In this document: positions 6,001 through 9,000 of the stretch, one piece after another
Layout of the letters: every line of letters starts with the position of its first letter
Numbering within the stretch: the first letter of the stretch is position 1
Assembly: GCA_013821315.1 (NCBI GenBank)
Contig: JACDHA010000005.1
Coordinates: forward strand, 1-64,000
Length of the DNA stretch: 64,000 nt
DNA from: Candidatus Babelota bacterium
Lineage (GTDB): Bacteria > Babelota > Babeliae > Babelales > Babelaceae
Direction of reading: 5' to 3'
Position numbers: made by a program

Positions 6001-9000
6001 ACTCTGGTTGCATGGGTAGTAACGCCAGTAATTGTGTTGTAGATCGTTTCATAGCTTGTAAAGTTGCCCTATAAATATTAATATCATCAATAATTCTATT
6101 ATGTATAAAGCTTACTGCGTAAAACGAATTATCTAAAAGCCATGCATAAGCTACGGATCTCTCTTTAGGTGACAGCAACTTTGAATCTTGTAATAGTTCA
6201 TGGTGAGTATGCGGTTTGAGCATGACAGTGGCTGTAACGACAGGCCCTGCAAGGCAACCACGACCTACTTCATCAACTCCTAGGACATTAGTTTGGTTTT
6301 TCCAAGCAGCATGTTCATAGAGTAAAGGAGTAAAGTCAGGTGTGCGTTTAAAAGTTGGCATATATTATGTTTTCCATTTGACAAGAATCTTAAATTGAGT
6401 ACAATTAGAAATAACGCAGTGATATATAACCAGACTATCATACATTCTTACAAATGGTAAGGGAAGGAGATTCTTATGTCATCAACAGCACTTAGAGTAA
6501 AAGAGCTGCTTAGAGAAAAAGGTTGGACAACCAAAATATTAGCAGAAAAAACTGGTATGTCAGAAAGTTATTTGACACATATCAAAAATGGCACACGTCG
6601 TTGGAATGAAGATTCCCTGAAAAAACTTGCTAATGCATTTGAAGTTAGTCCGATTGATTTATTTGCACAACGTCGTAAACGTACTGATGATATTGATAGC
6701 AACGTAAGTATGCCAGAAAAATCAGAAGTTCAATTAAAAGTACAAATTGTACCTGTTGTAGGGGATATACCTTCTAATCCGTCACCGTATAACAACCAGC
6801 TTATGCAGTTGACCACTGGATTTAAAGATATTTTTGTACCTGTGTTAAATTCTACCGATGGAGCAATGTTTGCTTTATCACTTTCAAGCAACCAGTTAGC
6901 ACCAGCTTTTGATAAAGGCGATGTACTAATTGTTTCACCTGAAGTCTGGACTCGCTCTGGCGATATAGCAGCAGTTGAATTTGGCAATGAAACACCGGTC
7001 AAAGCAGTAATGCAAGTAACCTATACAGATGATTTTATTGTACTTGAGTCCGTAAACCATAAGAGCTCACCTATAGCCCTTGTGCGCGGAAAAGATCATT
7101 TTAGAATTATTGGCAGAATAATCGCGCGTCATCAACGTTTTGAGTAAGCGCTTTATTTTTAGCCAATACTAAATAAAACCGCACGTACGTTGGCGTAGAC
7201 GTTCGTGTAGTTTTATAGTGTCATTTTATTACACTTCCACTTAGTAGAGGATTTACTATGTTACGTTACGAAACGCTTCTTTTAGCAGTGCCAGAAATTA
7301 CTGCTGACGAAGCAAACACACTAGAAACCCAGCTTGATAAGACTATTCAAGATCATAAGGGTACCATGCTTTCTTTTGAGCGTTGGGGAAAATATTCTCT
7401 TGCTTATCCAGTAAGAAAATATGATTATGGTGTTTATTTTCTTACTCGCTTTGAAGTAGGTTTAGAGACTAAAGATGCACTTTTAGAAGCTCTACGTACT
7501 TTATTTGCAGTTAAGTACAATGAACTTATTATGCGTCATGTTATTGTTCGTCTTGATTCTAGCGCTTCACTTGAGTATAGCCGTCCAGAATCATTAGAAG
7601 AAGTACCAACACGCGATGTTGAAACCTTCTTAAAAGAAAATAAAATGACTGGATTTTTAGGTAAATCAAGTTCTGCTGCTTCAGCTGACCTTGGTGACAG
7701 TGATGCAGATGATTTTAAAGACTTAGAACAATAGGAGCTACCATGGCACGTAAAGTTAAATTAAAAATTAGCGGTAGATTACTCCGCAAAAAAACACGTC
7801 GTAGCGGTTATGGTGCAGCTAAACAATGTCGCTTTTGCTCAAATGCTCAAGTTGCCACTGTTTTAGATTATAAAAACGTACCTTTGCTTAAAAACTTCTT
7901 AACAGAACGCGGCAAGATTTTACCATCACGTATCTCTGGTACCTGTGCTAAACATCAACGCCTTGTAACTACAGAAATTAAGCAAGCTCGTATAATGGCT
8001 TTACTGCCGTTTACAGCAGCTACATTCTAATAAAATTAAAAAGGCCCGTAGAAATACGGGTCTTTTTTTTGTCTATTTTTTCTTTAGCTAAGCTTTTGTA
8101 TCTGTCTAGTCTGGTGGTTGTCAGGAGAATGTCTTTTGTAGGTGCTTACCTGAATGTTAGACATTGTAGCTCGAGCAGAAGAAGAATCTTCAAAATATGC
8201 TTGAGCATACTGAGAAAACATTAAGTTATTGGTAGTTCTTGCTTTTACTCTAAGAGTAATAGTAGTAGGTTGATCGGGTTCTAAAGAACATATGTTTCGA
8301 AAAATGAGGCGTCTTTGATTATCAGTAACTTGTATAGCTTCTAGTTTAAAAGCATCTGAATGAGCTTCTAGTAGTTGCAGATATTCAGGTAGAAAGTCAG
8401 TTATAGTTATGCTTTTATTGGTATATGCTCTGTTTGGAGTAAACGTAATTATATAAGCAGCTGGACCGTTATCTACTTCTTGAGGCCCTTGAATAACCAA
8501 GCTGTCAGGTTGTAAAGATTTTGTTTGGGGCTTGATTAGAGTCACTGTAGCAACAGACATGTAGAGTGCTTGTGCTAAATTAACACTTGTTATAGTGTTT
8601 TTCTCTTCTTGTGTAAAAAACTTTTCTATAAATTCTGTATCATTATCGTCATTTAAAAGATAGCTATCGATAACCTCAGAGATATCTTCGCATCTCAGAG
8701 CGCTATTTTGAGTAGAAATAAATGCTGTTGTAAGAGAAGTATAAGTAAAGCCAACAATCAAAAGTAACCCGTAGTTGCATAGAGATACATAGCTCATAGT
8801 AAGCTCCAGATATAAAAATGTAAAAACTAACCTATGCAAAAAGCCTCGTAACTAGTACGAGGCTTTTTTGATTTTAGGATCGATTAGAAATCGAAAGAAA
8901 TGTGCTTGCTTAAGCTACAGACATTAAAGTAGCAGTTGAGCAACCAGTGCTTGAGCCACCGCATGATACTGATGGATTACCAACTACTGTTAATAGTCTA

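Follow-up and report, generated by a model that had tools for sequence, protein, structure and literature searches.

A candidate operator for a phylum-wide CI-like regulator of Babelota

Cells of Babelota, a phylum of protist parasites, first enlarge into undivided bodies, from which infectious cells arise by later splitting; ankyrin proteins and unknown proteins are secreted in large numbers. The locus analyzed here lies in a window of 64,000 nucleotides at the start of contig JACDHA010000005.1 (assembly GCA_013821315.1), and the question it raises is what kind of regulator its helix-turn-helix (HTH)/S24 protein is, and which DNA it may read. The survey's finding had described the protein as an ultra-conserved, non-cleavable LexA/CI-like repressor for which no operator or regulon had been found. 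The element added here is a candidate operator of this phylum-wide, CI-like regulator (Table 1). As in the survey, no description of this Babelota regulator was found in the searchable literature, a scope outside which subscription papers and bioRxiv supplements fall. The LexA score of 0 given for Babela in Pagnier's table was read correctly, yet the same table scores COG2932 as 1, the gene being listed as a predicted transcriptional regulator.

Table 1. Features of the regulator locus, in positions of the window
Feature	Position	Strand	Remarks
rnhB (RNase HII), divergent neighbour	5735..6361	-	intergenic region with candidate operator common to both genes
Candidate operator TTTCCATTTGACA	6371..6383	.	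overlaps -35 hexamer; top-scoring site of the window
-35 element TTGACA, sigma70-type promoter	6378..6383	+	
-10 element TACAAT	6400..6405	+	16 bp past -35
Conserved GTACAATTAGAAA over -10, possible weak second site	6399..6411	.	poor matrix score, median -1.0
Ribosome-binding site AGGAG	6465..6469	+	sequence
Regulator ORF	6476..7147	+	223 aa; lambda-CI-like; XRE HTH and catalytically dead S24 fold
XRE helix-turn-helix domain	6497..6664	+	residues 8-63, HTH_3/HTH_26 match
S100-N101, outgroup Ala-Gly cleavage-bond position	6773..6778	+	alignment with outgroup repressors
S24-fold C-terminal domain	6851..7123	+	residues 126-216, Peptidase_S24 match
Q140, Ser nucleophile position	6893..6895	+	alignment; weak phmmer match to 3k2z, start 140 = 119
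M179, general-base Lys position	7010..7012	+	alignment; Lys in 0/213
rpsF-rpsR, downstream neighbours	7258..8030	+	

The HTH plus S24 architecture ascribed to the ORF was recovered, both the HTH_3/HTH_26 and the Peptidase_S24 matches lying above the Pfam cut-offs (PF00717 at 44.7 bits). In fold comparisons the best matches are lambda CI (3bdn, 8gmu, 2ho0) and the LexA C-terminal domain, with a Z of 13.2 and an rmsd of 2.7 over 116 residues for the lambda CI structure. Structural matches of the N-terminal domain are XRE proteins, C.AhdI and C.BclI being the top HTH matches. The LexA winged-helix domain PF01726 has no match in the ORF, and TIGR00498 reaches 23.5 bits against a cut-off of 110.95, with its C-terminal part alone matched. 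The regulator is lambda-CI-like and not LexA-like. A homodimer model scored 0.48 against 0.00 for the best of three controls, a mark that 20 of 30 solved pairs and 1 of 23 single chains also attain, although likeness to solved CI/LexA dimers may explain the pass. Its runs had at least 39% of contacts in common and a pLDDT of at least 77, and the predicted interface takes in residues 215-222, the C-terminal strand.

The nearest outgroup proteins belong to the CI type and keep Ser, Lys and Ala-Gly. Among 78 outgroup proteins Ser and Lys are both present in 45, and the cleavage-bond position holds Ala in 51 and Gly in 50. The general-base Lys, found in 54 of these 78, occurs at the M179 position in none of 213 family members. 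Gly at position 101 is likewise found in 0 of 213, and Ala-Gly never occurs at the cleavage-bond position, as had been claimed; three members have an AG or CG dipeptide somewhere between residues 94 and 105. Loss of the Ser nucleophile describes most of the family, which carries Q, L or A at the Q140 site, but Ser persists in 12 of 213 sequences, and within a set taken mostly from deep families 12 of 35 copies still have it. Judged from the alignment, the universally lost catalytic residue is Lys rather than Ser. Residue K176, which had been suspected to be the old Lys, falls by MAFFT within a 3-residue insertion where gap placement is uncertain, M179 being aligned instead. The loop VG[ED]IPSNP, given as the family's version of the cleavage region, is present in 150 of 213 members and differs in the others, and a conserved predicted helix (residues 104-113) stands in place of the old cleavage loop. 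These comparisons support a regulator that is non-cleavable.

The regulator was found in 246 of 251 Babelota genomes, and in all 189 of high quality (at least 90% complete, at most 5% contaminated), which widens the 41 of 41 counted earlier. In identity ranks computed from reciprocal best hits it is third of 368 three-way orthologs by mean and second of 473, ahead of EF-Tu, in comparison with genome G079. Against G005, whose copy is cut at the edge of a 20-kb piece and misses the most conserved N-terminus, it is fifth of 470 at 78%; the 80% identity previously reported for this pair was otherwise reproduced. Overall, conservation is on par with HU and ribosomal proteins. The recognition stretch SESYLTH (residues 29-35) is invariant (213/213), while residues 22-48, described as invariant bar one substitution, are identical in only 177 of 213 sequences. 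Families f9, f10, f11, f12, f15 and f21 mostly have two copies each, and paralog pairs in several families share one recognition helix. A quick-mode protein tree stayed unrooted, the outgroup branches being too long to root on. Canonical LexA scored above cut-off in one of 121 genomes, the other 120 being without it, and recA is present in 61 of 61.

No prophage or mobile-element context was seen at 101 regulator loci; the setting is core chromosome, with rnhB divergent in 73 and rpsF-rpsR downstream in 79 of them. The conserved promoter noted by the survey reads TTTCCAT-TTGACA-N16-TAC[AT]AT-TAGAAA and is anchored in 84 of 85 loci, with a spacer of 16 in 80 of the 84. The candidate operator, first read from this promoter, is a 13-bp pseudo-palindrome, T(T/G)(T/A)CAA(A/T)TTG(A/T)(A/C)A, which overlaps the -35; intergenic DNA holds 12-24 such sites per genome. 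The missing operator and regulon now have a candidate supported by computation. Its C4 and G10 are invariant. A second operator over the -10 of the same promoter was rejected for its poor matrix score, and a TCT-N6-AGA dyad at the recA promoter was discarded as differing in spacing and lying within coding sequence.

Around TGAC[AT] in the intergenic DNA of three genomes, TTTC occurs 21 times at -8 and GAAA 19 times at +9, against a median of 4 per offset and with the signal present in each genome; these are the two offsets that a dyad predicts. The pattern TKWCWAWTWGAAA is matched 18 times in intergenic DNA and twice in coding DNA, the non-coding share of the DNA being 12-14%. The wider test consisted of pattern counts in 101 Babelota genomes and 20 short regions. 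In these genomes TTGACWWWTWGAAA is matched 188 times, a control longer by one base 32 times and the reversed pattern 72 times; the motif form without the -35 is matched 299 times, against 107 when reversed; and AGAAA follows TTGACAAAT 53 times, where shifted forms of the same composition occur 5 and 4 times. The spacing specificity is absent in viral contigs (about 1200, 1000 and 1800 for the same three forms). Also, none of 55 strong intergenic sites lies between convergent genes (p about 0.001). The motif is a spacing-specific promoter motif in Babelota, the regulator's own promoter included.

Unconstrained palindromic expectation maximization (EM) drifted to AT-rich sequence, and fixed-size training was therefore used, with a matrix trained on two genomes, the own promoter left out and the third genome held out. 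When the intergenic windows of each held-out genome are then ranked by score, the own site comes 2nd, 4th and 14th. A score of at least 8 is reached by 75-77 of 85 own promoters and by about 12% of all upstream regions; recA upstream regions are at background level (2/28, and 1/28 at 11 or more), uvrB, ruvB and radA score low in the cases scored, and the motif is weak at dnaK. With G079 held out, two or three control matrices equal or exceed the true matrix (9 versus up to 14 at threshold 12, 30 versus 30 at threshold 10). Deep-family own promoters score at least 11 in 7 of 21 cases for copy A and 2 of 14 for copy B, and in family f11 exact motif matches are missing from 2 of 2 genomes, the helix being unchanged. 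Palindrome counts in the intergenic DNA of G000 alone gave no clear operator, and ortholog footprinting (G000, G005, G079) was abandoned after returning tRNA artefacts and, once these were masked, TTGACA(A) alone. Avoidance of coding DNA is weak, at 0.56-0.68 of expected against 0.67-0.75 for the control; a stronger avoidance shrank after synonymous-codon shuffling and is not counted as support. Many sites contain TTGACA, so part of the motif signal rides on the -35, and the link between protein and motif rests on the candidate site in the regulator's own promoter.

The sites mostly precede lineage-specific genes with signal-peptide-like starts. In a held-out set of 20 sites from 11 families, no same-strand ORF of 100 codons runs across any of them, 18 are followed by a -10-like hexamer (spacer 16 in 12, 18 in 5 and 17 in one), and 12 of 18 called downstream ORFs are signal-peptide-like, with one homologous pair only among the downstream ORFs. 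Signal-peptide-like starts follow 27 of 34 site-bearing promoters and 158 of 262 TTGACA-like promoters without the site (p 0.04), by a home-made rule with a distance window picked after looking and with one control matrix also at 8/8, suggesting a modest enrichment of secreted genes over other promoters. Predicted targets are not common to orthologs, save the regulator gene and, in two genomes of deep families, a DEAD-box helicase; some are housekeeping genes (gmk, rpmE, gyrB, nrdA).

Few other regulators compete for the role. The published annotation of Babela holds only five, and one sigma70-family gene per genome was found in 5 of 5 tested. A scan of 114 small core proteins (up to 255 aa) of one genome gave, as other DNA-associated matches, a MerR-type protein, SpoVG, two HU, YebC, CarD and DksA/TraR. 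An HTH_17 protein of G000, presumably of the Euo-like class, was set aside as sporadic, proper HTH_17 passing the cut-off in no more than 8 of the 61 Babelota genomes, and the weak phylum-wide HTH_17 match of G000 falls at the MerR-type gene.

The locus presents a lambda-CI-type fold, loss of catalysis and phylum-wide retention in a fixed housekeeping neighbourhood. The explanation we consider probable is that the protein is a domesticated, uncleavable, CI-like dimeric and autoregulated global repressor, acting through the candidate 13-bp site over its own and 12-24 other -35 boxes. A phage-type repressor would have been domesticated in the Babelota ancestor, and its dead S24 domain would now serve dimerization, and perhaps partner or ligand sensing, because the conserved helix 104-113 replaces the cleavage loop. 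The protein itself would bind the candidate motif and thereby presumably block sigma70, as the -35 hexamer is covered in either orientation of the site, and its helix would be frozen because many sites are read at once while targets turn over between lineages. With a single sigma70-family gene to each genome tested, this protein would serve as the principal on/off control available for host-interaction genes. The most likely routes of release are, in our view, dilution as the multi-chromosome replication body grows, or an antirepressor. Judged from sequence, the regulator is likely a central gene switch of Babelota parasites. A bolder version, which we hold only tentatively, makes this ex-prophage repressor, freed from RecA, the life-cycle switch of the phylum, with stage-wise release of fast-turning secreted host-manipulation genes via the frozen 13-bp operator and with the deep-family paralogs as a two-state switch on the same sites.

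Among the rivals, each unlikely, the strongest accepts the motif but assigns it to a different factor, or to a preference of sigma70 or RNA polymerase peculiar to Babelota, the CI-like protein binding elsewhere. The weak sites of deep-family promoters and the narrow span of the regulator scan speak for it; against it, the dyad occurs in both orientations and also without the -35, neither of which a sigma contact would give, the regulator's own promoter is the most conserved instance of the motif in the phylum, and the published annotation leaves few other regulators. Slightly less credible is an activator or dual regulator on the same site, which, like lambda CI at PRM, would recruit sigma70 where promoter spacing is not optimal. 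The prevailing 16-bp spacer of the own promoter and the 16- and 18-bp spacers of the held-out promoters fit such a role, but the site covers the -35 hexamer rather than lying upstream, and a 16-bp spacer is also common in generic TTGAC promoters (75 of 193).

The uncleaved SOS factor that the survey had entertained, sensing RecA filaments still, appears improbable. The retention of recA without canonical LexA would suit it, as would the takeover of SOS control by CI-like proteins in Bacteroidetes and Francisella (PMC8565304; PMC13148647), although those regulators are described as acting by RecA-driven self-cleavage, and the residues on which such induction depends are absent here. The motif is at background by recA and low at the other repair genes scored, and a predicted helix occupies the place of the cleavage loop; the candidate operator and regulon favour a global regulator over an SOS factor. 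Least probable of all is a nucleoid or structural DNA-binding protein of loose AT-rich specificity, kept for chromosome organisation: the AT-rich consensus, the drift of free EM and an HU-like conservation level would agree with it, but exact spacing, an invariant C and G, the position in promoters and the lack of sites in convergent regions do not.

If the global-repressor explanation is true, the domestication of phage repressors reaches beyond DNA-damage control, with the catalytic machinery dropped and the DNA-reading head frozen. In bacteria with a single sigma70-family gene and some five annotated regulators, this regulator, kept throughout the phylum, and its candidate operator would offer a first handle on timing; with the candidate site, co-regulated secreted proteins are predicted across hundreds of uncultured genomes.

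The regulator shares with lambda CI and the CI-type S24 repressors (COG2932) an XRE HTH, a linker and an S24 fold and, by prediction, dimerization through the C-terminal strand. Unlike them, it is without the general-base Lys and Ala-Gly, and is fixed phylum-wide in the core chromosome between rnhB and rpsF at about 80% identity. Coliphage 186 CI, which does not cleave itself and is freed from DNA by an antirepressor, has a similar C-terminal fold (2fkd, Z 10.5) at 10% identity, but is a phage switch, whereas the regulator is a chromosomal core gene. The geometry of the candidate operator, xxC-N5-Gxx, resembles the C-box of restriction-modification C proteins; these are HTH-only and act locally, while the regulator has an S24 domain and many predicted sites. 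For chlamydial Euo a role in timing is established by experiment; for the present protein the developmental part proposed by the survey would be a hypothesis, and the two presumably belong to different domain classes. Euo is a lineage-specific repressor of housekeeping-sigma promoters (PMC12282069). The non-canonical LexA of Bacteroidetes and Francisella FddR are, like the regulator, co-opted chromosomal CI-type S24 repressors of lineages without LexA and mediate DNA-damage responses (PMC8565304; PMC13148647). FddR is autoregulated via a palindrome in its own promoter (PMC13148647); it keeps the catalytic dyad and Ala-Gly, whereas the regulator family lost both and has no candidate motif above background at recA. 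In Anaplasma phagocytophilum, Tr1 is described as a cI/Cro-like HTH multimer that binds effector and surface-protein promoters (PMC13410764); Tr1 is required for raising tick-specific genes, and its C-terminal domain is helical and not of the S24 kind. By analogy Tr1, from an obligate intracellular bacterium, would be the closest functional counterpart found.

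The regulator, which combines an XRE helix-turn-helix with an S24 fold, was matched in 246 of 251 Babelota genomes, including all 189 high-quality ones, and the five genomes that gave no match are 61-87% complete. Ranked by identity among reciprocal best hits, using our own gene calls and a G005 copy truncated at a piece edge, it came 2nd of 473 against genome G079, 5th of 470 against genome G005 and 3rd of 368 in the three-way comparison with genome G000, just ahead of EF-Tu. The survey's finding of presence in all genomes surveyed and of conservation above EF-Tu is borne out by these figures. 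A profile search of 1.84 billion representatives returned five near-full-length clusters at E < 1e-50, all with the family helix, and the next full-length protein followed after a gap, at 4.6e-24. Its divergent neighbour is rnhB in 73 of 101 loci, and rpsF lies downstream in 79 of 101; the HAS-barrel-like gene remains beside it also in loci from which rnhB has moved away (11 of 101). The regulator further occurs, at 82% identity and with the family promoter, in a record under the title Alteromonas naphthalenivorans (locus L074), probably a mislabelled Babelota bin.

Features in the window and in the compared genomes, with loci carrying two regulator copies
Feature	Location	Strand	Remarks
Regulator ORF	window 6476-7147	+	223 aa
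Candidate operator of the regulator gene	window 6371-6383		overlaps the -35
HAS-barrel-like protein	window 5133-5738	-	conserved; weak Pfam match; downstream of rnhB
rpsF leader	window 7168-7245	+	before rpsF; CTAAAT, variable hairpin, TTCCAnTT[AG]GT by the ribosome-binding site
Three very long tandem ORFs	window 19956-34742	-	1423, 1536 and 1864 aa
CxxC protein	window 36606-36761	-	51 aa; 76-88% identity in three genomes
Six short hydrophilic ORFs	window 59571-62551	-	N/Q/S/K-rich, low complexity; no G005 or G079 orthologs
153-aa protein	G000 C51:30687-31148; L239:7773-8234	- (C51)	one of the ten best-conserved genes; identity 76-86%
N/S-rich ORF	G079 L217:1514-1783		similar to the six short ORFs; operator-like sites upstream
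Regulator paralog pairs, tandem	L112, L114, L115, L122
Regulator paralog pairs, other	L111 and L117; L113 and L118

Other conserved elements were recorded in the same genomes. The full rpsF leader pattern occurs in 49 of 99 downstream regions and gave no Rfam match; it is probably the S6:S18 autoregulatory RNA leader in a Babelota version. The CxxC protein gene has a strong TTGACA promoter in all three genomes, and its G079 ortholog had no Pfam hit, nor had the 153-aa protein at 1e-8. The three long ORFs have a common N-terminal 'VYLPLQGH'-like motif, with signal-peptide-like starts in two.

Both domains of the regulator exceed the Pfam cut-offs (helix-turn-helix at residues 8-63, Peptidase_S24 at 126-216), while the LexA model TIGR00498 scored 23.5 against a cut-off of 110.95 and aligned to the C-terminal part alone. 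In the AlphaFold model (mean pLDDT 85.9, linker 66-80 disordered) the best Foldseek match is full-length lambda CI. VIA-align matched the C-terminal domain to lambda CI (Z 13.2), LexA (Z 12.8) and 186 CI (Z 10.5), and the N-terminal domain to XRE proteins such as Stl, C.AhdI and DdrO. The architecture is CI-like and not LexA-like, so that only the second half of the earlier LexA/CI-like label is retained. A homodimer through the C-terminal strand was modelled at 0.48 against 0.00 for the best of three controls, a value that may owe to likeness to CI and LexA; 20 of the 30 solved pairs tried attained that mark, as did 1 of the 23 single chains, and the runs had contact agreement of at least 39% and pLDDT of at least 77.

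The catalytic state was assessed by aligning 213 unique family members, drawn from 120 listed of 1812 matches, the surveyed loci and the five profile-search clusters, with 78 outgroup proteins of 190-250 aa from the same profile search. At the columns of S100, N101, Q140 and M179 the outgroup has Ala in 51, Gly in 50, Ser in 55 and Lys in 54, whereas at the last three of these the family has Gly in 0, Ser in 12 and Lys in 0, indicating that the losses common to all members are those of the general-base Lys and of the Ala-Gly bond. The proposal that both the Ser nucleophile and the Ala-Gly site were missing therefore stands for the latter; in a set of 35 copies taken mostly from the deep families, 12 retain Ser. 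K176, suggested before as the old Lys, is K/R in 211 of 213 members and sits in a three-residue insertion of the alignment, which argues against that identity, gap placement there being uncertain. The former cleavage loop is 88% conserved, with a helix predicted at 104-113, and the recognition helix SESYLTH is invariant (213/213). That this is a phylum-defining, catalytically dead CI-type regulator we regard as real.

Two copies occur in most members of families f9, f10, f11, f12, f15 and f21, in tandem in f9, f11, f15 and f21. Across these six families the recognition helix is the same in both copies and the C-terminal halves have diverged. In a quick-mode tree the paralogs mostly form two weakly supported groups (80 and 88), a grouping that fits one old duplication. 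In genome G118 (f16) a B-type copy alone was seen.

Conservation of the regulator's promoter, claimed before, was recovered as TTTCCAT-TTGACA-N16-TAC[AT]AT-TAGAAA, anchored in 84 of 85 loci; such flanks are absent around generic TTGAC promoters. Several paralog-B promoters contain TGAC-N5-GAAA, which, with TTTCCATTTGACA read as a pseudo-palindrome, predicts two offsets from the -35 element. In intergenic DNA, TTTC at -8 of TGAC[AT] was found 21 times (6, 8 and 7 in G000, G005 and G079) and GAAA at +9 was found 19 times (8, 7 and 4), each against a median of 4, and the same two signals were among the top ones in an unbiased 4-mer scan around TTGAC. This conditional test matters because the excess over dinucleotide shuffles comes mainly from forms with TGAC or GTCA. 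TKWCWAWTWGAAA had 18 intergenic and 2 coding matches, and the trained matrix has the consensus T(T/G)(T/A)CAA(A/T)TTG(A/T)(A/C)A. Where no operator or regulon had been found genome-wide, a candidate operator is now located at intergenic sites in three genomes.

The motif is a promoter dyad of specific spacing, and nowhere is it better conserved than in the regulator's own promoter. Across 101 genomes, kin among which are not independent, TTGACWWWTWGAAA gave 188 matches, spread over 82 genomes, whereas a one-base-longer control that holds one more ambiguous position gave 32 in 26 genomes and the reversed pattern 72; TGTCAAATWGAAA gave 73 (some of them own promoters) against 18 reversed, and TTWCAAATWGAAA, without the -35, 299 against 107, the reversed sums being hand counts from tables. 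With leave-one-genome-out matrices, seeded without own-promoter orientation and with own promoters masked, the own site ranked 2nd (G005), 4th (G079) and 14th (G000). Intergenic matches at threshold 12 numbered 14 in G005 against 0-6 in ten controls and 19 in G000 against 1-9; G079, with 9 against 0-14, is not separated from all controls. Avoidance of the motif in coding DNA was weak once synonymous shuffling was applied. Own promoters of the deep families score lower, reaching at least 11 in 7 of 21 (copy A) and 2 of 14 (copy B), and two f11 genomes had no exact motif match.

A general sigma70 preference, or another DNA-binding protein, might also account for such a motif. The 96 matches of TTGACAAATRRRAA, likewise tallied by hand, end in AGAAA (53), GGAAA (10), AAAAA (22), AAGAA (5), GAAAA (4) or other (2). 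Viral contigs, an imperfect control consisting of phage DNA, had an estimated ~1200 AGAAA, ~1000 AAGAA and ~1800 GAAAA; they show no preference for AGAAA, and the spacing preference is thus not a general sigma70 trait there. The five genomes tested have one sigma70-family gene each and no S24 protein besides the regulator or its paralog. Apart from the main ribosomal cluster there are 141 small core proteins; a scan of 114 of them yielded a MerR-type protein, SpoVG, two HU, YebC, CarD and DksA/TraR, so other candidate binders among the small core proteins are few. The motif is a credible operator candidate for the regulator.

At a score of at least 11.5 there are 55 intergenic sites (24 in G000, 19 in G079, 12 in G005); 28 of them lie between divergent genes, and no convergent pair has one between its members (p ~0.001). 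By a home-made rule, 27 of the 34 genes that have a site at 45-95 bp upstream, a range chosen after looking, begin with a signal-peptide-like stretch. The proportion is 812 of 2018 among all genes and 158 of 262 among those whose TTGACA-like promoter lacks a site (p 0.04); for one control matrix it was 8 of 8. Among 38 site-adjacent genes scanned, 7 encode ankyrin proteins and 22 had no Pfam hit; a few are housekeeping genes, among them gyrB, nrdA and one for an SMC-like ATPase. In a set of 20 sites from 11 families, picked from 53 exact matches and kept out of training, none was spanned by a same-strand 100-codon ORF and 18 were followed by a hexamer resembling a -10, at 16-18 bp from TTGACA. 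Downstream ORFs were called for 18 sites, and 12 of these ORFs (one doubtful) were signal-peptide-like; gmk, rpmE and two DEAD-box helicases are among the others. In L676 and L678, loci of the deep families f10 and f12, one and the same exact site lies ahead of a DEAD-box helicase gene, and it is absent before the helicase's best matches in G000, G005 and G079. A global regulon biased to secreted proteins is probable.

The motif upstream of recA, a gene found in 61 of 61 genomes, is at background level only. Just 5' of recA, in loci L248-L277, the recA promoter apparently lies within the 3'-terminal part of the preceding gene: most of the 29 loci read have a conserved TTGC-type -35 and a TACAAT/TAAAAT -10 in coding sequence. 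Among 121 genomes, one has a canonical LexA DNA-binding domain above the cut-off; it is found at the edge of a very small contig (L147, G003:C12) and may represent contamination or a mobile element.

A regulator dimer would bind the dyad, block sigma70 when bound at the -35, repress its own gene and control a set of targets that changes from one lineage to the next. Such turnover would explain both the frozen helix and the failure of ortholog footprinting to find an operator.

No description of the regulator or motif was found in the searchable literature, subscription papers and preprint supplements being outside reach. The accessible portions of Pagnier 2015 (PMC4378268) list five predicted regulators, with the LexA score of 0 cited before but COG2932 at 1, and enter the gene, without discussing it, as a predicted transcriptional regulator. 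In those of Deeg 2019 (PMC6561590) merR, yebC and fmdB are the sole names given, and those of Yeoh 2016 (PMC4776705) mention neither LexA nor XRE. Comparators, likewise from partial texts, are the Bacteroidetes regulators (PMC8565304), FddR (PMC13148647), Tr1 (PMC13410764) and Euo (PMC12282069); the survey's proposal of a developmental master switch resembling the last of these we consider possible, though less likely than not.
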